From Tubulanus polymorphus (lineage: Eukaryota; Animalia; Nemertea), in contig NC_134028.1 of the NCBI RefSeq assembly GCF_964204645.1, positions 10,168,001 to 10,232,000 of the forward strand: a DNA stretch of 64,000 nucleotides. Direction: 5' to 3'. Both the position numbers and the translations under genes were made by a program. Positions 1-62,130 of this stretch are shown in pieces; within the stretch, counting starts at the first letter, position 1; each line of letters begins with the position of its first letter. The notes under the pieces are model-generated. The model had not been told where the DNA came from, made no database searches, and saw nothing but the letters and a program-made list of their open reading frames with translations.

Positions 1-7
1 TATGCAT

Positions 8-229
8 TTATATGGGAGGAATATATTTTTGTTTTTCCAAATAATCAATAGTTAAATTAGATAAAGTAACTGCTAACGTTAATTTTAAAATATCATTTAT
101 ATCAAATCTATCAACATTAACACTTCCCATTTTGAATACTTTTTTTAATACCATTGAATAACCAACAGTTCCAACTGATAGTAATGCTCCATTATATAAT
201 CCAGTTATTATCCACTTATTATCACTCAT
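8..229 (-). CDS. small hydrophobic Polinton protein (73 aa)
   Basis: Almost identical to 54837-55058; two hydrophobic segments; starts at TAAATG. Confidence 0.75.
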   Translation of the reverse strand: MSDNKWIITGLYNGALLSVGTVGYSMVLKKVFKMGSVNVDRFDINDILKLTLAVTLSNLTIDYLEKQKYIPPI

Positions 230-232
230 TTA

Positions 233-586
233 TTAATCAAAAAAATTACTATCTTCAAAATATTTAGTTATCTTAGTGATGATTAATTCAACAGTTATTT
301 TATTACTAGTTTCATTTGTATATATTTCAATTATTATTTTTCTAATATCATCAATGATAAAATCTTCATCTAATTCATAAAATCTTAAAGATTCTCTAAT
401 TAAATTAGTAATCTTTTCTACATTTAAAGTTTCTTTATCTATTGTTGTTTTATACTCAAATGTTGTTTCATTAGAAAATGCAATATTTTTAATATGTGTA
501 ATTACATCATTAATGTTAAATCTCATTTCTTTCTCACGTTTAACATCAAATCCAAAACATACACTCGGTCCAACAGTTATATTCAT
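233..586 (-). CDS. Polinton hypothetical protein (117 aa)
   Basis: Open and conserved in both copies (54480-54833); starts at TATAAATG. Confidence 0.75.
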   Translation of the reverse strand: MNITVGPSVCFGFDVKREKEMRFNINDVITHIKNIAFSNETTFEYKTTIDKETLNVEKITNLIRESLRFYELDEDFIIDDIRKIIIEIYTNETSNKITVELIITKITKYFEDSNFFD

Positions 587-602
587 TTATATAGTGAAAA
601 AA

Positions 603-1361
603 TTACTCTTTACATCTTATAACTAATTCATAAATTACAGGAAAGTTATTCAAATCAATTAAATAACCATTATGATTTCTTATTTCTAATTTAAAATTAT
701 TGAAATGTGGAATACAAGGTTTGAAATCACATTCAGTTAAATTATAATTTATTTGAGTTCCAAATTGTTTGACATTTTTTAATGGTAAAATATTTAATAA
801 ACCAGAATTACAAATTGTATCTTTAGTTGCTTCAAATGTTTTTGTTGGGTCAATCAAATTGCAATAAATATAAAAGTGTGTAAAAGGTATTAAGTTTGAT
901 CTACCTTCTGCGTGTGCTGTAACAATATTTGGGTTAATTCCTAACAGTTTAGCTAAAGGTTTTCTTACTGTAAATTTAAATTGTTCGTTATTATCTAACC
1001 TAATCTTTATTTTATTAGAACTATCACTTTTTAAAATTCTAATATTAAATTTAGAATCACTTCCTAATTTAGCTCGAGCTTTTCTATTAATTTCTTGTGC
1101 TAATGTATCTAAATTATATAATCCTGGTTTTAAATATATAAAATACCATTCATTCATTTTTTTGTAAAAGATTGAAAAAATTAAATTTTCTAGACTTTTA
1201 TCCGATATATTGTAAAATGAGTTACATAAACTTATATTTACTAATTTTAAATCAACACAATTCTTAAATTCTCTATCTAATTGTACTAGTAAATTATGTG
1301 ATTTATAATTTGTAAGTTTTCTAGAATCTACAAATATTCTGTATTCTTTTAATTCTACCAT
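603..1361 (-). CDS. minor capsid protein (penton, single jelly-roll), putative
   Basis: N-terminal IFVDSR and C-terminal FYIYCNLI..LLNILP..FKLEIRNHNGYLIDLNNFP pattern typical of Polinton pentons; intact 252-aa ORF. Confidence 0.72.
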   Translation of the reverse strand: MVELKEYRIFVDSRKLTNYKSHNLLVQLDREFKNCVDLKLVNISLCNSFYNISDKSLENLIFSIFYKKMNEWYFIYLKPGLYNLDTLAQEINRKARAKLGSDSKFNIRILKSDSSNKIKIRLDNNEQFKFTVRKPLAKLLGINPNIVTAHAEGRSNLIPFTHFYIYCNLIDPTKTFEATKDTICNSGLLNILPLKNVKQFGTQINYNLTECDFKPCIPHFNNFKLEIRNHNGYLIDLNNFPVIYELVIRCKE

Positions 1362-1429
1362 TATTTATAACATAAAAAAATTACCAATCATCACTAAAAA
1401 TTAATTTTAATAAAATTTTTCCTAAATCA

Positions 1430-2744
1430 ATGGATGAGAAGATAGCATGCGAAATTTGTGGTGAACTTCTAAGAAAAAGTAATATGGCTCGACATATGAA
1501 AAAACATGATTAAAATTATAAACCCCCCAAAAATAAACTGCCCAAAATGTAATAAATTATTCTAAAGAAATTATGTTAAAAAACATTCAGAGAAGTGTAG
1601 AATTAATGACGCAACGGCTAATGTTGATAGTAATGAAAGTAATAGTAATTCTGCCGAAGTTGAACCTGAAGTTATTTGGAAAAGACCTTTCTTATTCTAT
1701 GATAAGGATAATATAAAAGATCATTTCTGTGAGCCTTGTCGAATAAAATATAACGCTGAAAATATAGAAGATTGGGAGAATCATCAATTTCGTAAAGTAC
1801 ATATAGATGAAATTTCTAATAAATTTGAAACTGAATTTAATGAAAGAAAAAATAATTTATTAGAAAAAATAAAATATGAGAAAACGTTACCAGATCATAA
1901 AGAAACAGTTGAAAAGTTAGAAAAACAATAAAATGAATTAACAAGAAAAACATATTATTGTAAATATTGTAAATTGATTATTACAACAAGTAATTCAAAT
2001 CTACATAATAGAACAATAAAACATAAAGAAAACGTAAGAAAATACCAAGAGCTTAATGAAGATCTATTACCAATAAATTATAAACAAAAATGCCCACAAT
2101 GTATTTATGCGACCTTAAGGCAAGAAGGTACTGTGTTATTTTGTGTTGATTGTGGATGGCAAAAGAATTTATGGGGTGAAGAAAAAACTAGAAATTTTCT
2201 CATAGATCCAAAATTAAATTATCTAGATGAAATTTTTAAAATATTTTCTATAGAAGATCATACACCAGAATATATGCAATGGCTTGAAAAAATGAAAATA
2301 ATAGAAAATAAAAATGGTGAAATAACTAAAAAAGATATTATAAATACAATTATTCCGTCAACATTTAACACAAAACAAAAGAAAATGTATTTATATTTAT
2401 TATTTAACGATTATTATGAAAAACCTAAATTAACAGAAGAAGATATGGAAAATATAAAAAAAATATTCAAACAAATATTAATGTATCATTTGGAAAATAG
2501 AATAACAGATTCAATAAATTATGAATTCTTTTTAAATAAGATTGTAAATTATTTAAACCTAGATATTATAATTCCATTTGACGAATTAACAAACAAAAAG
2601 AAACAAAGAGAGCGAGATGAAATGTGGAACAAGATAGAACTTTATTTAAATGAAAAAAATGGAATGGAAGAAGAACCTAAACAATTAAATGAAAATGAAG
2701 AAGACAATAGTGATTTCGAGTTTGATGATATTGATCCATTTTAA
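1430..2744 (+). pseudogene. zinc-finger protein with C-terminal VLTF3 (poxvirus A2)-like late transcription factor domain, disrupted
   Basis: ATG at 1430 inferred from copy B. Stops and a frameshift in the 5' part; 1974-2744 is open. Contains a CPQC..CVDC Zn ribbon and C-terminal INYEFFLNKI...QRERDEMWNKI. Confidence 0.7.
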
Positions 2745-5700
2745 TAACCATAAGGTAATGTTTTTATACCATCATCTGAAATATGCCTTTTATCATCAAA
2801 TGGATTTAAACTAGTTTTTTCAACTTCATTAATGTACATCTCGTGATCTTCTGATCTTAAACAATTCATTTTATGTTTCATTACAATTGAGTTATATAAA
2901 CACTTTATATAATCTTGAAATTCTATATGTTTATCAACCACATGTTTTGTTATTCCTTTTAACTTTTTAGCTTCATGATCTTTTGTTCTGTAACTATACA
3001 TTTTACTTCTTATCCCAACAAATTCAATCATTTCATCGCCCCCTAAATCATCTTTAAACTTACCAGGAATCTTTTTATTATCATTGCTAAATAGTTCATG
3101 ATCTTTGGGATAATTGCTAAAATCAAAATGATGTTTTAATGTTTTTAAGTCTTTTGTTATATCATTTGTCTTGATTTTTAGTATGTAGGCGTCGGTATTT
3201 TTTTGGATTAATGGGAACCCAGAATTGAATGTTCCATCATCTGTTGATAAATCATAAACATAGTCAGTTGGGTTATATATTTCAAATAAATCTTTAACTT
3301 CTTCTGTTAACTCATTTTCTACATGTCTTAAATTAAAGCAATTTGGTTTAGATTTAATCAATCCAATATTCATATTAAATCCTAATGAACTGCATAATAT
3401 ATTCAATCCTGATATAGCAACTTTTCCTTTTTGAGCTAAAGATATTGTTTTGAAACTTTTTGAACCATCTGCTGCATAGAATCCAATGAAGAACCATTTT
3501 CTTAAATTATTTTTTGCATTTAATACATAATCTGGAACTATCTTTTCTTTAGTTGAAGTATTACTTTTCACTATTGCATGAATATAGAATTCATCATTAT
3601 ATTTTGTAGCAAAATCTTTAGGATTATTTACAAATATTCTATAAACCGCGGATGATTTCATATGATCCATGATTCTAAATGTTTTATGTGAATAAACTTC
3701 TTCGGAGAATTTCTTTATTCTTTCTAATAATTTCAAATCTTGATTGCATAAATACCAACGATAGTGCGTGCGATTAACATAATTATACACGCCTGCTAAA
3801 CCATCACCCATGAAAAATCCTTTGATAAAATATTCTTTTTCTTCTAATGTTTCGGGTTCTATATTATAAATATTATCAATTATTTCATCAAATGACATAT
3901 GATTCATTCTTTGGAAAAATCTTTTATGTAATAATTCATGTCCAATTTTTATATCAGTTGGTTTTATTTCATCACCATTTCGTTTAATTAAACTATGATC
4001 TTCTGTAACATCTACAAATCCTAATTTAGTTCTAACTCTATAGATTTTCTTATTTGTTTTATGCCTAATAATATTCTTTAATTTTTTCCATCCATTTCTT
4101 GTCCAAACATCCATTGAACCATTTATTTGTATTAATTCTTTTTCTCCATATGAAATATAACATTCATTTTGTTTTGGAATTATTTCTGAAATTCTTCCTA
4201 TCAATATTTTATTATTACATTTTAATAATATTGGGGTGTCAGCTGTTACAGAATCAAAATATAATATTTCAATATGCTTTTCCCCAAAAAGTGGTTGTAA
4301 AACATTATAATAAAAATCATACATTAATAATTTTGATACTTCTAAAACAGTTGAACCAATAAATATAGGTTTATTAAATTTCATTGATGTTCTTTTTAAT
4401 TTAACTGCTGTTAAATAATCTTCAAATCTTTTATTTCCTAAATGTCTAGGACTTGATTGTAGGTGTCTTAATCTTTCAGAATTATTTACTAATTCAATAT
4501 CATTTCTATTTCTAATATTTTCACATGTTTTACCATAAAAACTATTGTTCATTAATTTAAAAAAATCTTTTTCGAAATCTGTTTTTGATATGGTTCTCTG
4601 TTGAGTATTGAAATCTATATATTTTTCTAACCACTTCGATTGATTAAATTCAATATATCTATGTACTTTCTTTAATTTCATTCCTTGTTTTAGATAAAAT
4701 TTTAACATTCTATAATGAACAATATAATTGTATTTATTATTTTGAGTAAGTATTAATTTTTCTGTAAAAACATGATCTTTCGGTTTTATTTTCTTCTGGT
4801 ATTCACTTAAATAACTATCATCTACAGTTAAATGTTCTGGGCAATAAGGTAAGTTTCTTGTTTTAAACTTTATATTTTCAGGATATTCTAAATCAACTAC
4901 AAAGAAATAACCAATTGGTGCTTCATCTTCTAAACTCATAATTGCGCTTTCCCAATTAGTTTTATCATCACTTTCAACTTCTGTTAATATAAAATTTTCG
5001 TATGGTTGAGGTTGCATCATTGCCCAACCATATAAATTATTGGCGTCAATATATAATAATTTATATTCATCATTTGCTTTAAAATATCTATCTTCCATAA
5101 CACCACTAATTCCACCTCTAATTGATTTTTCAAATAATAAAACCATATCTGGTTCTTTTAATAAATCTAATTCTACATTTGTATATTTTAAACCACATTG
5201 CCAGGTTAAACCAGGACTAGAGTAGCAATAACAAGGATCAACATTAAAATGATTCAAATTAACTTCTCTAAATTTTTCAAATATGTCCGCCAATATCATA
5301 ACATCTGATTTTAAATATAAATCAACTAATTCACCACGATTTTTCATCTTAAAATGGTTCCAAATATTTAATCTTCTATTAAACACTTCGTATTTCACAT
5401 ACTCCTCTTTTAATTGATCATAAAATTGATCTTTTAATAATTCTGTTACATTAAAATCATTGTGTGTTTTATAAAATGAATAAGGAATTGCGCCTTTATA
5501 TCTCAATAATTTAAAATCTTGTTCATTTGGATAATAATATCGAGTTATACCAAAATCATTATCATCTAAACTTTTTGATAAATTATCTAATGAACTTGCT
5601 AGAAATCTATAAGAATCTAAAAATCTAATGCAACCAAATTGAAATGAAATATAATTTTCAGATGTTTTAGCTAATAGTTTAAAATCATATTTTCTTACAT

Positions 5701-7792
5701 TTACACCATTCATAGCATTATATTCTTCTATTTCTTAATTAATTGCACCCAATTTTCCCGATAATTGTTTTATAAATAGATGGGTATCATAGCCTGATAA
5801 ATTATGAAATAATATTGGTACGAAATTAACTGTCTTAGCTTGTAAATTAAAATCTTCATGAGCAGCTCCACGATATTTTGAATTTAAATGATCATGATCT
5901 CTAACTTTTTTATCAAATGGATAAAAACGTTTTTCACAATAACAACAATGAGTTGCATAATTAAAATCAATTTCATCTTCTTTTGTCATAACTATTCTTT
6001 TATTTTTGTTTAATAATTTTGCAAAATCACTTTTTAATTCAATAATTTTATCACAAAAATCATTAACTACATTTTCACCTCTAAAAAAATATATTGACTT
6101 TCATATAATTCAGGATAATTTGATTTTATATAAATTCCATAAGCAGCAGCTCTTTGATGAACTTTTTAAATTGTATTTATAATTGGTGGGTCTTTTGTTG
6201 TGTCTTCATTTAATTCATTTCCTTTATCCATTGATTTTAATAATTGCTTTTTGTTATATATTTCTTTTCTATCTTGATCAGTTAATTCTTTATTCAACGA
6301 TTCGAAATCCCCATAAATTACAAATGGAACAATATTCTTAAATTTATGATTAGTAAATTTCAATTTATAATCTTTTTCTGTTGGCATTATTAATTTACAA
6401 AAATCTTTATTATCACATAATTCTTTATGTTTTAATAATGTATTCTCAGTCATAAATTTAGATAAACATTTTCAACATAGATTAATTTTACGATGATGAT
6501 CACTTTCTGTTCTAAAGAATAAATCAATTTGTTTTAACCACATATAATGTTCATTTTCATCTTTTTTTATAATATAACAAATCTATAGCATTTTCATCAT
6601 CATAATATTCTGTTAAATATAAAGCTTCCAATGTATAATCTTTAATATTTTCACCTTTTGTCTTTGGTAATTGCATTAATTCAAATACATTTATTTTTAA
6701 ATTATTAACTTTTTCTATTTTAGGAATAATTTTTATAGTTACTGGATATTGATCAATTTTATATAATGTTTCATATTTCCGATAATCTGTTATTCTACAA
6801 ACATTTTCCTGTGTTGGATGTAAGCAACTAATAATTGACCATAGAAAACATTTATTATCTTCATTTTGAATATTTATTACTGCTTTTGTTGTAAATGGTA
6901 ATTTAATATAAGATGATGCTTTAATATCTTTTTCTGTTGTAAAGTTTGAATTATCTTTAAACATTTTATTGCTTTTTGATGTTTTATTCCTTTTTGTATT
7001 ATAAACATTTAAATCTAAATATATAATTTCGTTCAATGTTAAGTCAGAACCCTCAAAATACCTTTCTTCAATATGACGTTTAAATTCATTAAATATTTTT
7101 TCTAACTTCTCTTTTATTTGTGTTTTTGAAATTATTTCTTCAGAGTGTGTTTGGATATTATAATTCATTTTTTCTTCTGACTTTATAAAACTTACTTTCC
7201 CAGAGATACTAATTTTTGGATATTCAACATCTGTTATCAAATCTAATATTTTTTCTATTATTTCATTAAATGTACTATAATCTTCTATTGTTGTACCTTT
7301 AAAAAATCTAAATATAATAGCTGCAGGACCAATTTTACTATGTAATGTTTCTAAAATTTCAATTGTATCTTTTATTAGTGAATCAATATAATTTCTAACA
7401 TTTTCCATGTAAGATTTATTTGAAATGGATTTAGTTTTTGAAGTTGGTTTTTTTACTTTTTGAGGTTTATCGTCAAAATAATCTTTTCCTAAAACATTAT
7501 TACTCAAATTTTGATGGTGTTTTTGTGATTCGAGATGTCTATTATAATTCCTTTTTACTATAAATTCATTACAAACTTCACATTTTATTTCATCCACATT
7601 CATATTTTCTAATCTTTCTTTTCTTTCATTGGAATTTTCTGGAGTTTCAAAATCTATTACATTTTTTATATGATTTGCAGTTTTTTCGTGTCGTGTTTTA
7701 TGAGATGTATCGACGTATTTTTTACAATATTTGCAATAATATTGATTTTTATTAACATTATTATTTTCTGGCTGGTGTTCATTCTCCCCCAT
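2741..7792 (-). pseudogene. polB: protein-primed family B DNA polymerase (pPolB) with intein; 5' part broken by stops/frameshifts
   Basis: Fragments at 6557-7792, 6166-6453, 5735-5989 and 2741-5713. Exonuclease motifs FVIYGDFES, FHNLSGYD, YLKSDV; polymerase motifs YIDANNLYGWAM, KLMNNSFYGK, YFD/TD. Confidence 0.93.
3197..4252 (-). other. intein with LAGLIDADG homing endonuclease in pPolB motif C (352 aa), copy A
   Basis: YFD|SVTADTPILL (block A, Ser1); VTEDHSL (block B TxxH); FIKGFFMGDG and FFIGFYAADG (endonuclease blocks); YVYDLST (block F); LIQKN|T (terminal Asn, +1 Thr). 1056 bp, in frame. Confidence 0.93.
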
Positions 7793-8224
7793 TTATTAGG
7801 GGAAAAAATTAATTGTGGTGATGAGTGGTGTCTCGCCCTCTCGCCCTCTGATCTGAAACCCACATCTTCCAATTACTCACGAGGAAAAAGTTTTTCTGGT
7901 CATTCCACCTGATGATGGCTGTTAGTCAACTAACCTGGTTAGTCAACTAACCAGGAGACTTTTTCCCTGGCGCCAACCGTAGCATTTTCATTCCACGGGA
8001 CTACATATTGCAGTACGTCACAGTGAGCAACCGAAAATAGTACATAATTACCAATTATAATCTTCTTTAGTAAAAAAGTTAAATATATGACTTACTGAAA
8101 CCTACATATTTGGTGAATATCTCAAGCGTGGTATTACTATTACTCGATAGATGGCAGCACATGCAGAAAATTAGAGTAGGCCTAGTAAGAAACGGAAGTT
8201 GACTCGAGGTTCCTGGTGTAGAAA

Positions 8225-46316: not shown

Positions 46317-47241
46317 TTATCAATACAAACAGCGCATTGTGCTGCATTGATAATTTACATTTTTCCGTCTTTTTTAATCTCCGTAACACCTTTTCACGGT
46401 CAACATAGTCTGCTCTATATCGTTGTTTTCCACGTTTGGAGTCGATATCTTTTCTTTTTGATCTATGTATTCGATTTTCTATATTTCTATATCAATCATT
46501 CAGACATTCGAATATTTTAATGACTGACCTGTTGTTGCGGAATACATGTATATCCATTTCCCAGTAAGCATTTTGCGTCGGGCCTACGTTGGCATTTAGT
46601 CGGTCAGTGAGTCGGCCCTAAGTCGTACTTGGCGCAGGGCGACGGACCTTTTGCTCATCCGAATATTGGCGGACCGATGTCATCTGCTGAACTTCAGCCG
46701 TCAGTTATCCGACTAAAACCTTACCTTCATTAATATTGTGCCTACTTCCCGCTGACTATTATCCAACTATGGTCCGACTGTAATCCGACTTCATTTCGAC
46801 CTGAATCCAAATTACTCACTCAGCAAGAACGTGTCAAGTATTGCAAATGTCAAATTTATTTTACACAACAAAGTGAATGAAAATCATATAAAAATATACA
46901 ATATTGTGAAAAAATATTCTATGTTGAGAAAAAAATAAACAATGTCGTGAAAAAAATATACAATATGTCGTGAAAAAAATGTACAAAAGTTTAATAGCCG
47001 GTAAAAATCTTTTGAAAAAAGGAATCATCGCTTGATCCACAGAGAAAAAATCGATTGTACACATCCTAATTTCTGTACAACGACAGACTTCTAGTCCTAT
47101 AAATCTGCAGCAGAATTGGTTTATACCTGAGTAAAAAAAACTTAAGCTATTAAAATTGCATTCAACTTTGACACCAGTAATTGTAAAAGTGGGGTTTCAG
47201 ATCAGAGGTCGAGAGGTCGAGACACCACTCATCACCACAAG

Positions 47242-47263
47242 TAATTTTTTTTCCTTATAAATG
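47242..47263 (+). promoter_or_regulatory. recurrent intergenic motif TAATTTTTT-Nx-TAAATG (example instance), poxvirus-late-promoter-like
   Basis: TAAATG overlaps the ATG at 47261, 54480, 54837, 55083, 55525, 55976, 57382, 58862, 60139, 61268, 62161, 62699 and 53607 (minus strand). Most are preceded by AATTTTTT. Confidence 0.7.
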
Positions 47264-50200
47264 GGGGAGAATGAACACCAACCAGAAAATAATAATGTTA
47301 ATAAAAATCAATATTATTGTCAATATTGTAAAAAATACATCGATAAATCCCAAAAATCACGGCATGAAAAATCTGCAAATCATATAAAAAATGTAATAGA
47401 TTTTGAAACTCCAGAAAATTCCAATGAAAGAAAAGAACGATTAGAAAATATGAATGTGGATGAAATAAAATGTGAAGTTTGTAATGAATTTATAATAAAA
47501 AGGAATTATAATAGACATCTCGAATCACAAAAACATTATAAAAATTTAAATAAAAATGTTTTAGGATCAGAATATTTTGATAATAAACCTCAACAAGTAA
47601 AAAAATCACCTTCAAAAACTAAATCCATTTCAAATAAACCTTACATGGAAAATGTTAGAAATTATATTGATTCACTAGAAATAAAAGATACAATTGAAAT
47701 TTTAGAAACATTACATAGTAAAATTGGTCCTGCAGCTATTATATTTAGATTTTTTAAAGGTACAACAATAGAAGATTATAGTAAATTTAATGAAATAATA
47801 GAAAAAATACTAGATTTGATAACAGATGTTGAATATCTAAAAATTAGTATCTCTGGGAAAGTAAGTTTTATAAAGTCAGAAGAAAAGATGAATTATAATA
47901 TTCAAACACTCTCTGAAGAAATAATTTCAAAAACACAAATAAAAGAGAAGTTAGAAAAAAAATTAAATGAATTTAAACGTCATATTGAAGAAAGATATTT
48001 TGAGGGTTCTGGCTTAACATTGAATGAAATAATATATCTAGATTTAAATGTTTATAATACAAAAAGAAATAAAACATCAAAAAGTAATAAAATGTTTAAA
48101 AATGATTCAAACTTTACAACAGAAAAGGATATTAAAGCATCATCTTATATTAAATTACCATTTATTACAAAAGCAGTAATAAATATTCAAAATGAAGATA
48201 ATAAATGTTTTCTATGGTCAATTATGAGTTGCTTACATCCATCACAGGAAAATGTTTGTAGAATAACAGATTATCGGAAATATGAAACATTATATAAAAT
48301 TGATCAATATCCAGTAACTATAAAAATGATTCCTAAAATAGAAAAAGTTAATAATTTAAAAATAAATGTATTCGAATTAATGCAATTACCACAGACAAAA
48401 GGTGAAAATATTAAAGATTATACATTGGAAGCTTTATATTTTACAGAATATTATGATGATGCAAATGTTATAGATTTGTTATATTACAAAAAAGATGAAA
48501 ATGAACATTATATGTGGTTAAAACAAATTGATTTATTCTTTAGAACAACAGAAAGTGATCATCATCGTAAAATTTATCTATGTAGAAAATGTTTATCTAA
48601 ATTTATGACTGAGAATGCGTTACTAAAACATAAAGAATTATGTGATAATAAAGATTTTTGTAAATTAATAATGCCAACAGAAAAAGATTATAAATTGAAA
48701 TTTACTAATCATAAATTTAAGAATATTGTTCCATTTGTAATTTATGGGGATTTTGAATCATTGAATAAAGAATTAACTAATCAAGATAGAAAAGAAATAT
48801 ATAACAAAAAACAATTATTAAAATCAATGGATAAAGGAAATGAATTAAATGAAGACACAATACAAGACCATTATGCATACAATTAAAAAAGTTCATCAAA
48901 GAGCTGCTGCTTACGGAATTTATATAAAATCAAATTATCCTGAATTATATGAAAGTCAATATATTTCTTTTAGAGGTGAAAATGTAGTTAATGATTTTTG
49001 TGATAAAATGATTGAATTAGAAAGTGATTTTGCAAAATTATTAAACAATAATAAAAGAATAGTTATGACAAAAGTAGATGAAATTGATTTTAATTATGCA
49101 ACTCATTGTTGTTATTGTGAAAAAAATTTTTATTCATTTGATAAAAGAGTTAGAGATCATGATCATTTGAATTCAAAATATCGTGGAGCTGCTCATGAAG
49201 ATTGCAATTTACAAGCTAAAAAAGTAAATTTCGTGCCAATATTATTTCATAATTTATCAGGATATGATACCCATCTATTTATAAAACAATTATCGGGAAA
49301 ATTGGGCGCAATTAATCAAGAAATAGAAGAATATAATGCTATGAATGAAGCAAATGTAAGAAAATATGATTTTAAACTATTAGCTAAAACATCTGAAAAT
49401 CATATTTCATTTCAATTTGGTTGCATTAGATTTTTAGATTCTTATAGATTTCTAGCAAGTTCATTAGATAATTTATCAAAAAGTTTAGTTGATAATGATT
49501 TTGTTATAACTCGATATTATTATCCAAATGAACAAGATTTTAAATTATTGAGATATAAAGGCGCAATTCCTTATTCATTTTATAAAACACACAATGATTT
49601 TAATGTAACAGAATTATTAAAAGATCAATTTTATGATCAATTAAAAGAGGAGTATGTGAAAGACGAAGTTTTTAATAGAACATTAAATATTTGGAACCAT
49701 TTTAAGATGAAAAATCATGGCGAACTAGTTGATTTATATTTAAAATCAGATGTTATGATATTGGCTGACATATTTGAAAAATTTAGAGAAGTTAATTTGA
49801 ATCATTTTAATGTTGATCCTTGTTATTGCTACTCTAGTCCTGGTTTAACCTGGCAATGTGGTTTAAAATATACAAATGTAGAATTAGATTTATTAAAAGA
49901 ACCAGATATGGTTTTATTATTTGAAAAATCAATTAGAGGTGGAATTAGTGGTGTTATGGGAGATAGATATTTTAAAGCAAATGATGAATATAAATTATTA
50001 TATATTGACGCCAATAATTTATATGGTTGGGCAATGATGCAACCTCAACCATATAAAAATTTTATATTAACAGAAGTTGAAAATGGTGATAAAACTGATT
50101 GGGAAAGCGCAATTACGAGTTTAAAAGATGAAGCACCAATTGGTTATTTCTTTGTAGTTGATTTAGAATATCCTGAAAATATAAAGTTTAAAACAAGAAA

Positions 50201-52314
50201 CTTACCTTATTGCCCAGAACATTTAACTGTAGATGATAGTTATTTAACTGAATACCAGAAGAAAATAAAACCGAAAGATCATGTTTTTACAGAAAAATTA
50301 ATACTTACTCAAAATAATAAATACAATTATATTGTTCATTATAGAATGTTAAAATTTTATCTAAAACAAGGAATGAAATTAAAGAAAGTAAATAGATATA
50401 TTGAATTTAATCAATCGAAGTGGTTAGAAAAATATATAGATTTCAATACTCAACAGAGAACCATATCAAAAACAGATTTTGAAAAAGATTTCTTCAAATT
50501 AATGAATAATAGTTTTTATGGTAAAACATGCGAAAATATTAGAAATAGAAATGATATTGAATTAGTAAATAATTCTGAAAGATTAAGACACCTACAATCA
50601 AGTCCTAGACATTTAGGAAATAAAAGATTTGAAGATTATTTAACAGCAGTTAAATTAAAAAGAACATCAATGAAATTTAATAAACCTATATTTATTGGTT
50701 CGACTGTTTTAGAAGTATCAAAATTATTAATGTATGATTTTTATTATAATGTTTTACAACCACTTTTTGGGGAAAAGCATATTGAAATATTATATTTTGA
50801 TATTGTAACAGCTGACACCCCAATATTATTAAAATGTAATGATAAAATATTGATAAGAAGAATTTCAGAAATAATTCTAAAACAAAATGAATATTATATT
50901 TCATATGGAGAAAAAGAATTAATACAAATAAATGGTTTAATGGATGTTTGGACAAGAAATGGATGGAAAAAATTAAAGAATATTATTAGGCATAAAACAA
51001 ATAAGAAAATCTATAGAGTTAGAACTAGATTAGGATTTGTAGATGTTACAGAAGATCATAGTTTAATTAAACGAAATGGTGATGAAATAAAACCGACTGA
51101 TATAAAAATTGGAGATGAATTATTACCTAAAAGATTTTTCCAAAGAATGAATCATATGTCATTTGATGAAATTATTGATAATATTTATGATATAGAACCC
51201 GAAACATTAGAAGAAAAAGAATATTTTATCAAAGGATTTTTCATGGGTGATGGTTCAGCAGGTGTGTATAATTATGTTAATCGCACTCAATATCGTTGGT
51301 ATTTATGCAATCAAGATTTGAAATTATTAGAAAGAATAAAGAAATTCTGCGAAGAAGTTTATTCATATAAAACATTTAGAATCATGGATCATATGAAATC
51401 ATCGGCGGTTTATAGAATACTTGTAAATAATCCTAAAGATTTTGCTACAAAATATAATGATGAATTCTATATTCATGCAATAGTGAAAAGTAATACTTCA
51501 ACAAAAGAAAAGATAGTTCCAGATTATGTATTGAATGCAAAAAATAATTTAAGAAAGTGGTTCTTCATTGGATTCTATGCCGCAGATGGTTCAAAAAGTT
51601 TCAAAACAATATCTTTAGCTAAAAAAGGAAAAGTTGCTATATCAGGATTGAATATATTATGCAGTTCATTAGGATTTAATATGAATATAGAATTAATTAA
51701 ATCTAAACCAAATTGTTTTAATTTAAGGCATGTAGAAAAAGAATTTACAGAAGAAGTTAAAGATTTATTTGAAATATATAACCCAACTGACTATGTTTAT
51801 GATTTATCAACAGATGATGGAACATTCAATTCTGGGTTCCCATTAATCCAAAAAAATACCGACAGTTACATACTAAAAATCAAGACAAATGACATAACAA
51901 AAGACTTAAAAACATTAAAACATTATTTTGATTTTAGCAATTATCCCAAAGATCATGAACTATTTAGTAATGATGATAAAAAGATTCCTGGTAAATTTAA
52001 AGATGAATTAGGGGATGATGAAATGATTGAATTTGTTGGGATAAGAAGTAAAATGTATAGTTACAGAACAAAAGATCATGAAGCTAAAAAGTTAAAAGGA
52101 ATAACAAAACATGTGGTTGATAAACATATAGAATTTCAAGATTATATAAAGTGTTTATATAAATCAATTGTAATGAAACACAAAATGAATTGTTTTAAGA
52201 TCAGAAGATCATGAGATGTACATTAATGAAGTTGAAAAAACTAGTTTAAATCCATTTGATGATAAAAGGCATATTTTAGATGATGGTATAAAAACATTAC
52301 CTTATGGTTATTAA
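47261..52314 (+). pseudogene. polB: pPolB with N-terminal Zn fingers, OTU-like protease, HNH/EndoVII insertion and intein; frameshifts near 48860 and 52195
   Basis: ORFs 47261-48886 and 48849-52214 plus a tail to TAA at 52312-52314; all exonuclease and polymerase motifs present; DNKCFLW..EHY; CCYC..RDHDHL..YRGAAHEDCN. Confidence 0.93.
50802..51857 (+). other. intein with LAGLIDADG endonuclease in pPolB motif C, copy B (residue 1 is Ile, not Ser)
   Basis: YFD|IVTADTP ... LIQKN|TDSY; 1056 bp, in frame; same blocks as copy A. Confidence 0.92.
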
Positions 52315-53607
52315 AATGGATCTATATCATCAAACTCGAAATCACTATTGGCTTCTTCATTTTCATTTAATTGTTCAGGTTCTTCTTCCATTCCATTTTT
52401 TCCATCTTGTTCCACATTTCATCTCGCTCTCTTTGTTTCTTTTTGTTTGTTAATTCATCAAATGGAATAATAATATCTATGTTTAAATAATTTACAATCT
52501 TATTTAAAAAGAATTCATAATTTATTGAATCTGTTATTCTATTTTCCAAATGATATATTAATATTTGTTTAAATATTTTTTTTATATTTTCCATATCTTC
52601 TTCTGTTAATTTAGGTTTTTCATAATAATCGTTAAATAATAAATATAAATACATTTTCTTTTGTTTTGTGTTAAATGTTGATGGAATAATTGTTTTTATA
52701 ATATCTTTTTTAATTATTTCACCATTTTCATTTTCTATTATTTTCATTTTTTAAGCCATTGCATATATTCTGGTGTATGATCTTCTATAGAAAATATTTT
52801 AAAAATTTCATCAAGATAATTTAATTTTGGATCTATGAGAAAATTTTTAGTTTTTTCTTCACCCCATAAATTCTTTTGCCATCCACGATCAACACAAGAT
52901 AACACAGTACCTTCTTGCCTTAAGGTCGCATAAATACATTGTGGGCATTTTTGTTTATAATTTATTGGTAATAGATCTTCATTAAGCTCTTGGTATTTTC
53001 TTACGTTTTCTTTATGTTTTATTGTTCTATTATGTAGATTTGAATTACTTGCTGTAATAATCAATTTACAATATTTACAATAATATGTTTTTCTTGTTAA
53101 ATCATTATATTGTTTTTCTAACTTTTCAACTGTTTCTTCATTATCTGGTAACGTTTTCTCATATTTTATTTTTTCTAATAAATTATTTTTTCTTTCATTA
53201 AATTCAGTTTCAAATTTATTATAAATTTCATCTATATGTACTTTACGAAATTGATGATTCTCCCAATCTTCTATATTTTCAGGGCTATATTTTATTCGAC
53301 AAGGCTCGCAGGAATGATCTTTTATATTATCCTTATCATAGAATAAGAAAGGTCTTTTCCAAATAACTTCAGGTTCAACTTCAGCAGAATTACTATTACT
53401 TTCATTACTATCAACATTAGCCGTTGCACCATTAATTCTACACTTCTCTGAATGTTTTTTAACATAATTTCTTGAGAATAATTTATTACATTTTGGACAG
53501 TTTATTTTAGGGGGTTTATAATTTTCATCATGTTTTTTCATATGTCGAGCCATATTACTTTTTCTTAGAAGTTCACCACAAATTTCGCATGCTATCTTCT
53601 CGTCCAT
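52311..53607 (-). pseudogene. C2H2 zinc-finger plus VLTF3-like protein, frameshifted
   Basis: CEIC..HMKKH, CPKC..H, YCKYCK..H fingers; ORFs 52744-53607 and 52367-52747; C-terminal INYEFFLNKI..DEMWNK. Confidence 0.7.
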
Positions 53608-53674
53608 TTATTTAGGAAAATTTTATTAAAATTAATTTTTAGTGATGAGCGGTAATTTTTTTATGTTATAAATA

Positions 53675-54463
53675 ATGGTATAATTAAAAGAACACAGAAT
53701 ATTTGTTGATTCTAGAAAACTTACAAATTATAAATCACATAATTTACTAGTACAATTAGATAGAGAATTTAAGAATTGTGTTGATTTAAAATTAGTTAAT
53801 ATAAGTTTATGTAACTCATTTTACAATATACCAGATAAAACTTATGAACATAGAAGTTTTTTTATTCTTGATAAACGTAGTAATAATAATTTTCAACTTA
53901 TGATTACACCAGGATTATATAATTTAGAAACATTAGCGCAAGAAATTAATAGAAAAGCTCGGATTATGTTAGGTAGTGATTCTAAATCTAATATTAAATT
54001 CATAAAAAGTGAGAGCTCTAATAAAATTAAAGTAAAGTTTGATGATGAAAATATTAGTCCTGATTCATTTATGTTAAGAAGACATGCTTACGCGGTAAAA
54101 AAACCTTTTGCTAAACTGTTAGGAATTCCTCCAGATAAACTTATTGTTGGAAACATATACGGTATATCAAACTTAATACCTTTTACACATTTTTATATTT
54201 ATTGCAATTTAATTAACCCAACAAAAACATTTGAAGCAACTAAAGATACAATTTGTAATTCTAGTATATTAAATATTTTACCATTAAAAAATGTCAAACA
54301 ATTTGGAACTCAAATAAATTATAATTTAACTGAATGTGATTTCAAACCTTGTATTCCACATTTCAATAATTTTAAATTAGAAATAAGAAATCATAATGGT
54401 TATTTAATTGATTTGAATAACTTTCCTGTAATTTATGAATTAGTTATAAGATGTAAAGAGTAA
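53675..54463 (+). pseudogene. penton/minor capsid protein; nonsense codon at codon 3
   Basis: ATG GTA TAA here versus ATG GTA GAA in copy A; the rest is open and homologous to 603-1361. Confidence 0.72.
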
Positions 54464-54479
54464 TTTTTTCACTATATAA

Positions 54480-54833
54480 ATGAATATAACTGTTGGACCG
54501 AGTATATGTTTTGGGTTTGATTTTAAACGTGAGAAAGAAATGAAATTTAACATTAATGATGTAATTACACAAATCAAAAATATTGCATTTTCTAATGAAA
54601 CAACATTTAAGTATGAAAAAACAATAGATAAAGAAACTTTAAATGTAGAAAAGATTACTAATTTAATTAGAGAATCTTTAAGATTTTATGAATTAGATGA
54701 AGATTTTATCATAGATGATATCAAAAAAATAATAATTGAAATATATACAAATGAAACTAGTAATAAAATAAATGTTGAATTAATCATCACTAAGATAACT
54801 AAATATTTTGAAGATAGTAATTTTTTTGATTAA
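54480..54833 (+). CDS. Polinton hypothetical protein (117 aa)
   Basis: Conserved with 233-586. Confidence 0.75.
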   Translation: MNITVGPSICFGFDFKREKEMKFNINDVITQIKNIAFSNETTFKYEKTIDKETLNVEKITNLIRESLRFYELDEDFIIDDIKKIIIEIYTNETSNKINVELIITKITKYFEDSNFFD

Positions 54834-54836
54834 TAA

Positions 54837-55058
54837 ATGAGTGATAATAAGTGGATAATAACTGGATTATATAATGGCGCCCTACTATCAGTTGGAATTG
54901 TTGGTTATTCAATGGTATTAAAAAAAGTATTCAAAATGGGAAGTGTTAATGTTGATAGATTTGATATAAATGATATCTTAAAATTAACATTAGCAGTTAC
55001 TTTATCTAATCTAACAATTGATTATTTAGAAAAACAAAAATATATTCCTCCCATATAA
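54837..55058 (+). CDS. small hydrophobic Polinton protein (73 aa)
   Basis: Conserved with 8-229. Confidence 0.75.
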   Translation: MSDNKWIITGLYNGALLSVGIVGYSMVLKKVFKMGSVNVDRFDINDILKLTLAVTLSNLTIDYLEKQKYIPPI

Positions 55059-55082
55059 TTACATAATTTTTTTACTAAATAA

Positions 55083-55505
55083 ATGGCTTCTGCAATTATA
55101 ACTATTATAGGATCGGCAATTGTTAACGCTTTGGCATTTACTGGTGGTGGATATTTATTTAAACATATTGATAAAAATAGTTCATTAGGAGAACAAAGAA
55201 GACATAACTTAGCATTAGAGAAATACAATAAAGCAGCAGAAGAATATAGAGAAAAGAGGCAAAACTATATGGATTATATTAACAAGGAATTATATGATCA
55301 GAAGATTTCACATAGAGATTTTCAATCAGTTGATGATGCAATGAGTTTATATAACGCAGTAACAAATAAAGAAAAATTACATCTATACAAACCTAAATTA
55401 TCAGATTATTATACCCCAAGTAAAGAACAACAGAAATATGAAATAATATGGATTTTAGGTGGAACTGTTATTGTTATATTTGTAGCATATAAATTTACTA
55501 ATTAG
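55083..55505 (+). CDS. Polinton membrane protein (140 aa)
   Basis: Gly/Ala-rich hydrophobic N-terminus, central coiled coil, C-terminal TM segment; TAAATG start. Confidence 0.7.
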   Translation: MASAIITIIGSAIVNALAFTGGGYLFKHIDKNSSLGEQRRHNLALEKYNKAAEEYREKRQNYMDYINKELYDQKISHRDFQSVDDAMSLYNAVTNKEKLHLYKPKLSDYYTPSKEQQKYEIIWILGGTVIVIFVAYKFTN

Positions 55506-55524
55506 TAATTTTTTTTCTAAATAA

Positions 55525-55959
55525 ATGGAAAATAAAGTTGATAGTATTGATATCATTCCTCATGATATAAATAAAACTAAATTAAAAATATATTTAGAAA
55601 AACAAATATTAGAATTTGAAAGTGACTTAAAGATAAAAAAGAAAAAATATTTAAAATGTAAAATTATATATTATTTGATTATTAGTGGTTCGGTTACAAT
55701 TAGTTCTGTAATAACATTTCTAGCAATATTCAGTCCATTAACACCTTTAGCTATATCAATTGGTGTATTAGGATTAAGTTCAAGTGTATTAACCGGCATA
55801 AGTTCAAAATTAAATATAAAAAGTAATAAAGAAAAAATGAAAACTAATATAAAAGAAATTAATAAATTAAAGAACACACTAGATTATATCATGAGTTTAA
55901 ATGGTCATATAACAGTTGAAGAACAAGATAAATTATTAAAAGAATTAATAAATTATTAA
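55525..55959 (+). CDS. Polinton two-TM coiled-coil protein (144 aa)
   Basis: Hydrophobic hairpin flanked by Lys-rich helices; TAAATG start. Confidence 0.7.
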   Translation: MENKVDSIDIIPHDINKTKLKIYLEKQILEFESDLKIKKKKYLKCKIIYYLIISGSVTISSVITFLAIFSPLTPLAISIGVLGLSSSVLTGISSKLNIKSNKEKMKTNIKEINKLKNTLDYIMSLNGHITVEEQDKLLKELINY

Positions 55960-55975
55960 TTTTTTAATTATATAA

Positions 55976-57365
55976 ATGGTAGATAGTTTTCCAAAAGCCT
56001 TCCAATATAATAAATCAATTAAATATAATATTCCAGCAATAGATTTTAATAAAGATATTACATATAGAAATGAAATTTTAGATTCATTAACTAATTTAGA
56101 AATTTATGTTACTGAAACTAATAATTTTAATGCAAAGATGGAAAATATATTTCATGTATATTTAATTGATTTTAAAAAATTGAAAGATGAAAAACAATGG
56201 TTATTAAAATCTAATATGAAGTATTGGCAGAACCAATTAAATTTTGCTGTTTATTGTGCAACAACAGGATGTGGAATTAGTTGGAATGATCATTTGAATA
56301 ATTCTAAATATAAATTAATTCAAAGTTTATTTAGATTTCATACATACTTTCAAATCAGAATAATATTTAATGAATTAGAGTGCGCTTTACCAGGATCAAG
56401 ATATTTTTAAAGAATTAGATAATAATACTAATTTATCAAAGTTTTATAAAATTTGTAATGAATTTAATATAGATATAAATAATTCTGATTTTAGAACAAA
56501 AAATGGAACAATAAGATCCCTTCCTTGCCCTAAAAAGATTGCAGAATATTGTGCACTTCCCATACCATCTAATAGCTTTTATAATATCTATAATAATAAA
56601 TTAGGTTATGGTAAAATAGAAACTAAGGATTTAGAAACATTAAATTTCAATAAATTACCGAAATTTTATGATAATTTAAAACAAGAAAACAATAATGGTT
56701 GGGTTTATTTCATTTTAGAAAACAGTGAAGGTTTTACAAAATCAGGTATACAAAGAATAAATCAATCTATTAGAACTTATTTGATATGTATTCTAGGTGC
56801 ACAAGTTGAAACAAGATCCCCAATAATTGGAAATTTAAATACATCATTTGATACACAGAAACAATTTAAAGTTTTATTTGACGATTCAATTCATAATGAT
56901 AAAAATAGATCGATTCCAGAAAACATTATAAGATATCAAAATTATTTAGATAAATCTCATGTAAGGCTTAATTATTGTATAGGCCCTAATCTATTTATTA
57001 TTTCTAATGATTTAGTATTAAAGATGGGAAACATAATTGGTTATAATAATCTAATTAAAACTGCAACAATAAATAATTCATTTGGATTGAATGATATAAA
57101 TAAAAAGATTATTACTGCTCCAAAATTAATGGAAGGTGAAAAAAATAAAAAACACATTCAATCAACAGAAACTAAAACTAAGAATATTAAATTAAATAAT
57201 GATTCTAAAATAAAAGATTATAATACATCAGAAAATAATAGAACTGATATTATTCAACATGATATAATTAAAACTGATAATGATAATAAATCCCATGAAA
57301 ATACTAAATTAGCTATAACTTGTATAGGAATTGTAATCGGAGGAATATTATATTTTAAATTTTAA
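55976..57365 (+). pseudogene. Polinton protein of unknown function with C-terminal TM, frameshifted near 56405
   Basis: ORFs 55976-56410 (WQNQLNFAVYCATTGCG) and 56781-57365 appear to be one gene; intergenic motifs bound both ends. Confidence 0.6.
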
Positions 57366-57381
57366 TTTTTTTATTATATAA

Positions 57382-58811
57382 ATGGATGTAGAAGGTGGAG
57401 AAGATATTGGAATGGATCCTTTTGATGAACCTGGTATAACTGATGAACAACTACTGATTTTGATGAAACAAGTTTAAATGATGGTAATGAGCCAGAATAT
57501 AATAATAATTTGAATATGCCTGATTATATTAAAAATGCAGAATCACAATTAAATCCTGAAAATTTAGACCCAGATTTAGTAAAACAAGATTTCGATAATT
57601 TAAACAAAATACCTAAATTAGAAGATTTAATTGAAAAATCTAAACTTAACATAAATGATGAAGACGTTGGACTTTTAGCAGATCAATTAAAATTTTTAGA
57701 TAATGGTAAATGTTATTATCGTTTGAAAGGTGATTATTATATTGATATCACTTATAAAAATAATAAAAACAAAATATTATCAGAATCAACTTTAGAAAAA
57801 TTAAAACCAGATAGAATTAAAATAATAAGTAATAGTAATGAAATAACTGATGTTACACAAAAAGAAATAGATGATAATATAGACGTATTTAAACAAAGAA
57901 TTAATGAATTATTTGAAATAATCAAAAAGAAATCAGAAACAGAAACAACATCTGAACAGAATATAACTTCCAAAACTAGTAAACTTAAATCAAATAAAGT
58001 TTCAATTGAAAAACTTTTACCGAATGGATTAATTGATGCAACAGATCAACAATTAGAAGATTTAAATATATTTTCTGATGAAGCAATTAGAGAAATTATT
58101 AGTATAAGAAATGAAGCTGATAAAATTGCACATAATAAAAGTATAAGAGATCAAAAATTATGTATTTGGAAAAAGAATTAACTAATGCAAATAAAGAAAT
58201 AGAACAAATAAAGTCTGATTTAGATCATCAAGTAATTGATGAAATAGAATATAGGCAAAAAGAATTACGTTTAGAAAAAGAAATTAATAATTTAAAAGAT
58301 AATTTAGAAGTACAAAAAGAAGAAATTAAATTATTATCAAAATCATATGATTATAATATAAATAGATTAAAAGTTATTTTTAAAGATTTATTCTGAAATA
58401 TCACTGAAAGATAGAATAAAGTTATTATTCAAATTAGAAGGAATAACAATTCTTTCAATTCTAACAGCTGTAACTATGTTATGTACAACAATTGGTTTAG
58501 CAATATCAAATGCTTTGAAATCTACTCCTACTCCCAATAAACCGGATAAACCCCCGAATGATAATAATTCTATACAAGATAAAGTTAAAGATGGTTTAAA
58601 GAAATTAGCAAAATATTTATGGGAACTATCTAAAAAATCTGCTGCAGCTTTACCAGGAATTATTGCATCAATTGTTGGTTTTATATTGAAATCTGCTGGG
58701 AATATTCTTAACTTTGCTGCTGAACATATTATTTTATTTTTAATTACAGTTGTAAGTGCTATTATCTTTGGGTTAGTAAATATGATATCAAAAAATATCA
58801 AGAAAAAATAA
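57382..58811 (+). pseudogene. acidic/coiled-coil protein with C-terminal hydrophobic segments, frameshifted
   Basis: TAAATG at 57382; fragments 57510-58181, 58160-58396 and 58476-58811. Confidence 0.6.
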
Positions 58812-58861
58812 TAAAAAATAAACATGATAAAAAATAAATAATTAATTTTTTTGTTAAATAA

Positions 58862-60108
58862 ATGAGTGGGAGTTATATAAGTCCTTCTAAGATTTCTAGA
58901 ATACTAATGCTATTAAAGCAGAAAGATCACATCATATAATTACTCATAATCCTTCAAATATTAATCCTGATGAAACTTTATATGTTAGAATTCCTAGATT
59001 AACACAAAATACTTTTTATGTTCCAAATAGTATTTATTTATCAGCCGATATAAAAGTAAATGGTCATGATAACAATTATGTTGTTGATAATGTTGGAAGA
59101 TATTTGATTAAAAAATTAACTATAAAGATTGGTCCAGAAACAGTTTTCTCATTAGATGATTATAATTTATTTATGCATTATAAAGATTTATGGTTAACTA
59201 AAGAAAATAGAAATAATATGATATTTCAGGGTATTCAATCGAAAAACCATAATAAATTAAGATCAGGAGCTTATGACGCAATAGTAACTCGTGCCACAGA
59301 TAATTTGATTAAAAAGATTTATGGAAGCAAATATAAAATTCCATTAGACTATGAATTGATAAATAATAATGCACCTTTATATAAATACGCAATTCAAGAA
59401 GATATTATATTTGAGATAACATTTGCTCCTGTAAATGAAATTGTATTATCTAGCGTTGTTAAAGATATGGGTTATAAATTATCGAATATATGTTTAGAAT
59501 ATAACACAGTAACTAATGAAAATATTGCTAGCACAATTCAAACTCAATACAATCAAGGATTTTCATTATTATATGATTATATTGATAAATTTAAAACCGT
59601 AACTATTAATGCAAATGATGAAATAATTAATGAGAATATTAACTTCCCAAGAAGATCTATTAAAGGTATATTAATATTTTTTACCATTGCAACATATTCT
59701 AATGGTGCAATAAAGGTAGATAATTATTATAATCCTGAAATAACAAAAGTTGAAATAACTATCGAAGGAATAGCAAATAAAATATTTTGTCAAGGAATGA
59801 GAATGATTGATCAATGGCCAGAAATTAGAAAACATTTTATGAATGAAAAAGTAAAATCATTTGAAAATTGTAATATTAATCAAATTGATTATTATACCGC
59901 TAATAAATATGCATTATGGTTAGATTTTAGAACAACAGAGGATAATTCATTACATGGTTCTGGGAAGAAATTACAGAACACTAAAGATGGAATACAATTA
60001 TTCATGAAAAAGAAAAAAGGAGACAAAAATTTCAAAATGCACATTTATATTATATCTGACGCGCAATTAAATATTGTAAATTCACAATTAGATAGTATTC
60101 AATATTAG
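58862..60108 (+). pseudogene. major capsid protein (double jelly-roll, hexon-like); frameshift near the 5' end
   Basis: HNPSNINPDETLYVRIP..VDNVGRYLIKKL; NENINFPRRSIKGIL; YALWLDFRT..DNSLHGSG; position next to integrase and ATPase. Confidence 0.75.
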
Positions 60109-60138
60109 AAATATAAAGTTAAAATTAAGGATATATAA

Positions 60139-61267
60139 ATGGGTGGTAAAAAAACTCCTAATACTAAAGAACAATATTTAAGAAATTTATATTACAACCC
60201 TGAGAGTTCAGTTGCTTATTCTTCTACTAAAAATATATGGCGTCAAGTAAAACAAGATAAATTAGATAAGATAATCCCACAAAATTTAGTTAAATATAAA
60301 GATATAAATGAATTTATGTTAGAACAACCAACATATACAACACATAAAAAATTGTTAGAAAATATAAAACTCGTAAAACTATGATAAGTTATGTAAATCA
60401 ACAGTGGCAAGGAGATTTAATTGATATGAAAAATGTTAAGAAAGATAATGATGATTATTGGTGGTTATTGAATATAATTGATATTTTTAGTCGTTATGTA
60501 TGGAGCTTCCCACTTTATAGAAAAGATGCTGTACAAACATCAAATGTTTTAAGAAAATTTCTTTCGGATGATAAACTAAAACCAGAAAAAAAAACAATTT
60601 GATGATGGAAAAGAGTTTGATAATTCACTTGTTCATGAACTCTCAGATAATCATAATATTAATTATTTTTCAACAAAATCGGATAAAAAAGCAGCAGTTG
60701 TTGAACGATTTAATAGAACATTAAGAACAAGAATGTGGAAATATTTTACAGCAAATAATACTTTTAAATGGATTGATGTTTTGCCAAAATTGATAGAAGG
60801 ATATAATAATTCTTATAATTCTTCTATTGGAATGAAACCTATTGATGCTAGAAAACCTGAAAATGCTGAAATTGTTTGGAATAATTTATATGGAGCATTT
60901 CTTGTAGATGATTTTGGTGAACCTAAATTTAAAAGTTGGTCAAAATGATAGAATTTCTAAGTATAAAAAGATATTTGATAAAGGATACGATCGAAATTTT
61001 ACTAGAGAAATATATAAAATAAAAAAGGTAATAACAACAAAACCATATGTCTATAAATTAGAAGATTTAGATGGTGAAGAAGTTGATGGCTACTTTTACG
61101 AAGAAGAATTAAGTTTAACTACTGAAAATCTAGAACAAGAATATAAAATTGAAAAAGTATTAAAAACAAAAACTATTAAAAGAAATAAATATTCTTTAGT
61201 AAAATGGGTTGGATGGCCAGATAAATTCAATGAATGGATATTATCAAGTAAAATTAAAAATATATAA
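60139..61267 (+). pseudogene. retroviral-like (rve) integrase with C-terminal chromodomain, frameshifted
   Basis: QWQGDLIDM, IIDIFSRY, DDGKEF, KAAVVERFNRTL, YNNSYNSSIGMKP; YKIEKVL..LVKWVGWPDKFNEWI. Confidence 0.9.
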
Positions 61268-61876: not shown

Positions 61877-61884
61877 ATTCAATT

Positions 61885-62130
61885 AGTTTGTTAATCTAGT
61901 TGAATTCTAGTTATTGGTATTTGTAACAAAAATCAAATAGATTTAACAATATTTTAACTAGCTTGTTAATCTAGTTTAATTCTAGTTACATTCTAGTTGA
62001 ATTCTAGTTGTTAGTAGTTGAAACAAAAATCAACTAGATTTAACTAGAAATAAACAAAAACAACAATATTTCAACTAGCTTGTTAATCTAGTTGAATTCT
62101 AGTTACATTCTAGTTAAATTCTAGTTGCAA
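61885..62130. repeat. CTAG-rich direct/inverted repeat array in a viral intergenic region
   Basis: Repeated TTAATCTAGTTGAATTCTAGTT and complementary AACTAG units. Confidence 0.75.

Follow-up and report, generated by a model that had tools for sequence, protein, structure and literature searches.

The catalytic motif C of a Polinton DNA polymerase gene, in the 64,000-nucleotide stretch of DNA analysed here (the window), is interrupted between its two aspartates by an insert that proves to be an intein, belonging to the pol-c family and carrying a two-motif LAGLIDADG domain. Together with its relatives, it shows a known family of inteins in a host protein and an element of new classes, apparently undescribed so far; several Polinton families are polymorphic for it, and it is probably present in animals.

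In copy A, the intein (3197..4252, minus strand) runs from Ser to Asn, in frame and without a stop, inside the open reading frame 2741-5713(-), with YFD before it and TDA after it. A reading made earlier from the letters alone (the sequence-only reading) had claimed a 352-aa in-frame insertion splitting motif C and carrying Ser1, TEDH, two LAGLIDADG motifs, VYDL, a terminal Asn and a +1 Thr, and all of these were located in copy A. Block B reads T83-E-D-H86, GFFMGDG at 145 and GFYAADG at 257 form the LAGLIDADG pair with a catalytic acidic residue in each motif (Asp150 and Asp262), and block F (VYDLST at 332, with Asp334) is followed by Lys351-Asn352 and the +1 Thr, so that the class 1 intein set of Ser/Cys1, block B Thr and His, terminal Asn and +1 Ser/Thr/Cys is complete. 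The penultimate residue is Lys351, as in the mimivirus intein, and not the usual His, which is found at this position in several Polinton-borne relatives. A penultimate His is common in class 1 inteins but not universal. The site itself is the classic pol-c site, as had been proposed, being the same as in giant-virus (YGD/TDS) and archaeal (YAD/TDG) PolB inteins; the downstream flank had been given as TDS, which is true of copy B but not of copy A, where it is TDA.

Profile searches, suggested earlier as a check, recognised both parts of the insert. The intein N-terminal region profile TIGR01445 matched residues 2-88 with 29.3 bits (cut-off 24.5), Pfam LAGLIDADG_3 (PF14528) scored 23.8 (cut-off 22.5), and Pfam Intein_splicing gave an E of 2e-6, yet stayed below its cut-off (28 versus 35.8). 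PI-PkoII aligned colinearly with the insert (E 1.4e-5). An AlphaFold model (pLDDT 85.4, pTM 0.88) had endonuclease-bearing inteins as its best Foldseek matches (TliVMA, PhoVMA, PI-PkoII and PI-PfuI; E 1e-14). With approximate boundaries, the N-terminal Hint (splicing) half, all-beta in the model, covers residues ~1-115 (3908..4252, minus strand), and the endonuclease domain, matching I-DmoI and intein endonucleases in Foldseek, covers residues ~136-310 (3323..3847, minus strand); the C-terminal Hint half with blocks F and G (3197..3310, minus strand) was aligned to the C terminus of PI-PkoII. A Hedgehog-type or bacterial intein-like Hint domain was considered and rejected, because the insert carries an endonuclease and aligns colinearly with the pol-c inteins.

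The host gene lies in a Polinton present twice in the window, as two AT-rich blocks (22-25% GC in 34-43% GC surroundings) that are ~97% inverted copies of each other. Copy A (1..7877, minus strand) ends at 7877 and has its other end outside the window; copy B (47176..63127, plus strand) is ~16 kb long, its right end being tentative. The tentative ends of copy B are short and AGT-type, and no long inverted repeat or target duplication was found at them. The Polinton setting claimed earlier was borne out by a PF03175 polymerase, pieces of an integrase and an A32 ATPase in the element. The protein-primed polymerase gene occupies 2741..7792 (minus strand; PF03175, E 1.7e-18) in copy A, with breaks near 6560 and 6090 and a stop near 5735, and 47261..52311 (plus strand; PF03175, E 2.7e-20) in copy B, with frameshifts near 48860 and 52195. 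Comparison with full-length relatives by tblastn placed these breaks outside the intein. The polymerase identity claimed for both hosts stood, but neither gene is intact. The window polymerase also shows an HNH-type motif, and its relatives match Endonuclease_7.

Downstream in copy B, on the plus strand, an A32-like packaging ATPase gene (61268..61876; Pox_A32, E 1.2e-13) follows a retroviral-like integrase with chromodomain that is in pieces (60381..61267; rve E 1e-6 and Chromo E 7e-5, both below cut-off). A probable major capsid protein gene (59104..60108) is a lead only: its Atlas match was 0.97 to Preplasmiviricota and NCLDV capsid clusters with recognition below threshold, its predicted model had a pLDDT of 31, and it had no PDB sequence match. 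No protease was matched among the copy B element ORFs scanned with Pfam, some small ORFs lying outside that scan. A maturation protease is absent from some Polinton groups. Short direct repeats at 61865-62127 occupy the non-coding gap after the ATPase gene. In raw genomic reads of the same species label (X5), 494 reads crossed the element boundary at 7877 into dissimilar flanks (agreement 0.37), the pattern that many insertion sites would produce.

The same insertion had been claimed in copy B, and an insert of the same length (1056 nt) is indeed present there (50802..51857, plus strand), with intact endonuclease motifs and 34 positions differing from copy A, but it begins with Ile instead of Ser. 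Since Ile1 replaces the first nucleophile, splicing of copy B is not expected. Comparison of A with B gave 12 silent and 8 replacement changes for the endonuclease part and 1 silent and 10 replacement changes for the N-terminal Hint half; these are small numbers, and the excess of replacements in the Hint half fits decay after insertion. Judged from their sequences, both window copies are decayed integrants.

Intein-minus alleles, for which a search had been proposed, were present in the X5 reads, whose sample and study differ from those of the four runs containing the stretch. Exactly empty alleles were detected in this DNA as 22 reads joining 3196 to 4253, a skip of 1056 nt. Because the skip is seen in DNA and is not GT-AG bounded, it indicates an empty allele and not RNA splicing. 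Two further X5 joints of the same net length were covered by 32 and 20 reads, and a fourth joint occurred on one X3 contig; these distinct empty-site joints represent several subfamilies. The X5 mean depth was 215 over the intein and 611 beside it, a ratio of ~0.35 that gives only a rough share among related copies, because the exteins may attract reads of distant subfamilies. The flank 8101-9000 was also covered by X5 reads.

Protein searches then placed the intein among relatives in other Polintons. The top 5 among 120 long homologues listed were inteins in Polinton-type polymerases, 45-62% identical and at the same site, and P0057 is likewise a Polinton-type polymerase with an intein there. 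Most of the other long homologues listed sit in PF00136 RNA-primed PolB, including that of mimivirus (37%), and from mimivirus and the anchors L001 and L002 we infer that most of these PF00136 hosts are giant viruses. A search with the polymerase added three partial intein carriers among 118 additional proteins, and in a short-length search 32 of the 120 proteins listed matched a Polinton-borne intein best. Empty relatives read YFDTDS at motif C. Both alleles coexist within clusters: the P0006 cluster (136 members) has 7 filled, 6 empty and 2 fragmentary members among 15 listed, and with those of P0009 and P0057 three 90% clusters in all were mixed. Among 18 full-length Polinton-borne inteins, which include near-copies and correspond to ~9 lineages, both catalytic Asp were kept in all 18 and Ser1 in 17. 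The closest polymerase relatives (P0157-P0170) are 52-83% identical and lie mostly on 4-17 kb contigs; P0166, a 57% relative of the window polymerase, is labelled Sulfurimonas sp. in UniRef and is probably a mis-binned eukaryotic element.

Other searches returned no Polinton-borne intein. Among the best 150 hits of a 50%-representative search (4433 proteins) there was no Polinton-type extein, probably reflecting clusters represented by empty alleles. A scan of DNA with the intein likewise found none, its best matches being 42% identical on viral or metagenome contigs and 35% in prokaryote genomes, with ORFs examined at 2 of 197 loci; scans of viral contigs with P0160, P0057 and the capsid candidate gave no matches. 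Separately, several short, nearly intein-only ORFs were observed on long contigs (P0408 from a 55-member cluster, P0413, P0430 with 14 members, and P0526-P0536), having Met and ~10 residues before the intein and 4-7 residues and a stop after it. In these, the intein may be stranded in a non-autonomous element or at an ectopic site. Inteins of the same family were also seen in a PF03747 protein (P0039, GGD/TD site) and in topoisomerase II (P0010), which shows jumps to non-allelic sites.

Protein sequences of filled and empty alleles were further compared for signs of homing. Of the six empties in the P0006 cluster, five differ from filled members at only 1-10 of 745-1031 upstream residues (the sixth at ~45 of 961), and 12-19 differences are found in the 55 residues around the site. 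One pair had 12 differences in these 55 residues and 5 in 1136 elsewhere (Fisher test, p 1e-13, with the window of comparison set after the data were seen). Such a pile-up may reflect short-tract recombination at a cut site, from filled or resistant empty templates. Empty sites of the cluster are of three types, YTDCDS, YFDTDA and YGDTDA, and many more types occur among 118 relatives. The P0145/P0142 pair, identical around the site, reads as a clean gain or loss. In P0174-P0274, motif C was observed to be unusually variable, with YMDCDS in 35, YMDTDS in 24, YIDTDA in 10 and YIDTDG in 7 of 118 and Cys in place of the conserved Thr; this is possibly escape from the endonuclease.

An intein tree was rooted on 8 archaeal pol-c inteins, of which the outgroup row L146 is possibly incomplete, after 15 rows (duplicates, partial and other-site inteins) had been dropped and the 97 others thinned to 49 at 62% identity. 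Sixteen Polinton-borne rows formed one clade (100/100) within a starred group of 47 rows, mostly RNA-primed PolB inteins. The sister group of this clade, unstarred at 83/93, contains the type ending in FN(T)GFPL, which is also found on the giant-virus MAG contigs L001 and L002. The 16-row clade is nested among giant-virus-type PolB inteins. Four rows around P0057 fell outside it, and a single origin of both groups was not rejected (p-AU 0.354); the tree suggests that the P0057 group is possibly a second independent acquisition. This second group (P0057, P0410, P0414, P0423 and P0544) was observed to branch with different giant-virus-type inteins and has an empty allele.

The distribution of the intein over the polymerases is patchy. 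On a tree of N-exteins from 15 filled and 46 empty polymerases, with rows picked after the data were seen, no site found in P0171 and P0008 left out, 14 changes were counted against 13.6 for shuffled labels, and at least 10 changes were forced by starred branches. The P0008 extein has no BLAST match to the window extein over 280 residues, and its intein is 46% identical and nested in the clade; an unlike extein joined to a similar intein points to transfer between distant Polinton polymerase classes. For P0001-like polymerases, the intein/extein identities were 62/57, 49/46, 45/44 and 46/41%, a parallel that would fit inheritance with repeated loss as well as homing.

We consider it likely that the intein splices itself out of the polymerase and spreads by cutting empty Polinton polymerase genes and then being copied in. 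Class 1 splicing consists of attack by Ser1, transfer to the +1 residue and cyclisation of Asn. After translation of a filled polymerase, Ser1 would attack the upstream peptide bond with assistance from Thr83/His86, the +1 Thr would take over the N-extein, and Asn352 would cyclise, restoring the YFD-TD motif. The released endonuclease would cleave motif C of another Polinton where that site is empty. The cut element would be converted when a filled copy serves as template for its repair, sometimes together with flanking sequence, and an empty template whose site sequence differs would leave an escape allele. As for its origin, the intein would have moved at least once from the RNA-primed PolB of a giant virus to a Polinton polymerase, at a short stretch shared by the two, which would require their DNAs to be present in the same cell; long residence and transfer between distant Polinton classes would have come afterwards. 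Such entry is plausible because a short DNA core at the site is common to both genes. At a site between catalytic aspartates, imprecise loss would kill the polymerase, and inteins therefore persist there.

A broader proposal is that giant-virus-derived inteins colonised Polinton polymerases and home between copies inside animal genomes, countered by target-site swapping, and that they record the sharing of cells by Polintons and giant viruses; we judge this as probable as its negation. Homing could instead be confined, now or in the past, to free virus replicating outside the germline, perhaps in non-animal hosts that giant viruses also use, with the animal genome merely storing both forms after separate integrations. 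This is rather unlikely in our estimation, although the short contigs of P0157-P0170, the decay of both window copies and the several subfamilies seen as empty-site joints would all suit it. Against it, filled and empty alleles with ~99% identical backbones and mosaic flanks were found in one cluster on contigs of 50 kb to 1 Mb, which indicates exchange within one population of elements, whichever the compartment. A single ancient insertion, inherited vertically in Polinton polymerases with many precise losses and little homing now, appears improbable. It would explain why, within the main polymerase class, intein and extein identities run parallel in 4 of 4 comparisons and why P0145 and P0142 are identical around the site, and it accords with the p-AU of the single-origin test; however, it has to absorb the changes forced by starred branches, it leaves P0008 unexplained, and none of the 18 full-length inteins has lost a catalytic residue of its endonuclease. 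Unused homing endonucleases decay.

To read the insert as an intron, as an artefact of assembly or as contamination from a prokaryote is almost certainly wrong: it is in frame and stop-free, carries protein-splicing motifs, has ends that are not GT-AG on either strand (for which a spliceosomal intron was rejected), matches the exteins in GC and GC3, and occurs in two copies and in four sequencing runs, and the best prokaryote-genome and phage matches reach only 35% and 27%. As for the host, the recognised flank genes are transposons only, and 13 of 14 flank ORFs had no Pfam match. A P-element-like transposase with zf-AD instead of THAP was observed at 25103-26956, and an rva_4 integrase ORF at 31982-32854. 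The transposase had 10 Atlas rows that were 99-100% eukaryotic; its best cluster (0.92) is commonest in Echinodermata, and further rows are commonest in Arthropoda (7/10) and Basidiomycota (2/10). A Harbinger-type transposase, split, possibly by an intron, lies with an opposite-strand Myb/SANT gene at 12495-18783. A relic at 43.8-46.4 kb had a DUF1759 match below cut-off (E 2e-4), and we take its other motifs to be BEL/Pao-like. BEL/Pao is called a metazoan subclass in the available text of a survey that covered metazoans only (PMC3118150). These flanking transposons fit an invertebrate animal host, which we regard as highly probable on the letters of the flanks. A non-animal eukaryote would make this another intein in a viral-like polymerase of a protist or algal nucleus, and we hold it to be very improbable: the Basidiomycota rows, the sub-threshold BEL/Pao-like match and the oomycete Polintons with a similar polymerase architecture (HNH insert), described in the part of PMC10748475 at hand, would allow it, whereas the Echinodermata and Arthropoda rows, the zf-AD match, the BEL/Pao-like relic, the Harbinger-type transposase and the Myb/SANT gene argue against it.

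Several repeats of the intervening DNA were also observed. A 213-nt inverted-repeat element lies at 15127-17504, between the Harbinger-type transposase and the Myb/SANT gene, and an array of 20-nt units in both orientations at 9319-9913 forms several long inverted repeats. Positions 20111-22102 and 33992-34319 hold an element whose inverted ends are 152 nt long and which contains short tandem units; ends related to these reappear at a distance of 12 kb, upstream of a set of broken ORFs (34718-37710) that has a weak Pfam match only.

The copy A intein resembles those of giant viruses. The mimivirus PolB intein (R322, residues 1053-1403, according to the part of PMC549080 available) is 37% identical, ~350 aa long and at the same motif C site, and those of the giant-virus MAG contigs L001 and L002 are 41-42% identical. 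Mimivirus and other Nucleocytoviricota pol-c inteins share Ser1, TxxH, two LAGLIDADG motifs, a Lys-Asn end and a +1 Thr; the mimivirus intein is only predicted to be active (PMC549080, same portion). Unlike giant-virus PolBs, the extein here is protein-primed (PF03175) and has no BLAST similarity to them over 280 residues upstream, and unlike giant-virus pol-c inteins, those of copies A and B sit in a multi-copy integrated element. Archaeal pol-c inteins, which form the outgroup, and the solved inteins (TliVMA, PhoVMA, PI-PkoII and PI-PfuI) have the common Hint and two-motif LAGLIDADG fold, but are only 22-29% identical over long matches. With Polintons/Mavericks (adintoviruses), as described in the accessible portions of PMC8502044 and PMC5718144, the element shares a size of ~16 kb, pPolB, RVE integrase, A32 ATPase, a probable capsid gene and many insertion sites; copy B differs in carrying the intein and in that long inverted repeats, a target duplication and a protease gene were not found.

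Nuclease domains within Polinton polymerases have been reported as HNH/VSR inserts (PMC10748475, in the text available), but these have no reported Hint domain, sit elsewhere in the protein and mark whole lineages, unlike the intein here, which is complete, interrupts the active site and has both filled and empty alleles; the word 'intein' is absent from the main text of that paper. One sentence in the accessible text of PMC11071308 suggests that Polinton pPolB nuclease inserts came from inteins. Virus-derived inteins in viral polymerases, as here, were described on nuclear scaffolds of Klebsormidium, Tetrabaena and a labyrinthulomycete (PMC10710043, section 8); those hosts are non-animal, Polintons are unmentioned in the main text, and section 8 describes no multi-copy filled and empty population. 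According to section 5 of a 2018 census, eukaryotic nuclear inteins occur in fungi and protists, and the viral inteins in the portion of that census available belong to four giant-virus families and unclassified viruses, with no animal and no Polinton named (PMC5784728). The absence of an earlier description, claimed by the sequence-only reading, is upheld by the literature searched, as far as its texts were available: no intein was reported in a Polinton or other protein-primed polymerase, including in PMC12220804, PMC3671162 and PMC13768754, and 'intein' occurs 0 times in the available text of coral, vertebrate Maverick, protist and 2026 PLV surveys. An earlier mention could stand in InBase, in Repbase, in subscription journals or in the intein tables of PMC5784728 and PMC10710043.

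These data widen the range of inteins to host proteins and elements of a new class each, and probably to another kingdom, and supply firm evidence where PMC11071308, in its accessible part, only speculated. They also add a compact intein and endonuclease of a eukaryote-associated element to the known set. Since donor and target must be in one cell for homing, the position of these inteins among those of giant viruses has a bearing on the question of whether Polintons encounter giant viruses or depend on them. With both allele types present in one species, and with natural variants of the site, homing and resistance can be tested directly in a multi-copy family. If homing inside animal genomes is true, this would be a homing drive that operates naturally on a family of endogenous viruses, and the first endonuclease-bearing intein resident in animal nuclear DNA.
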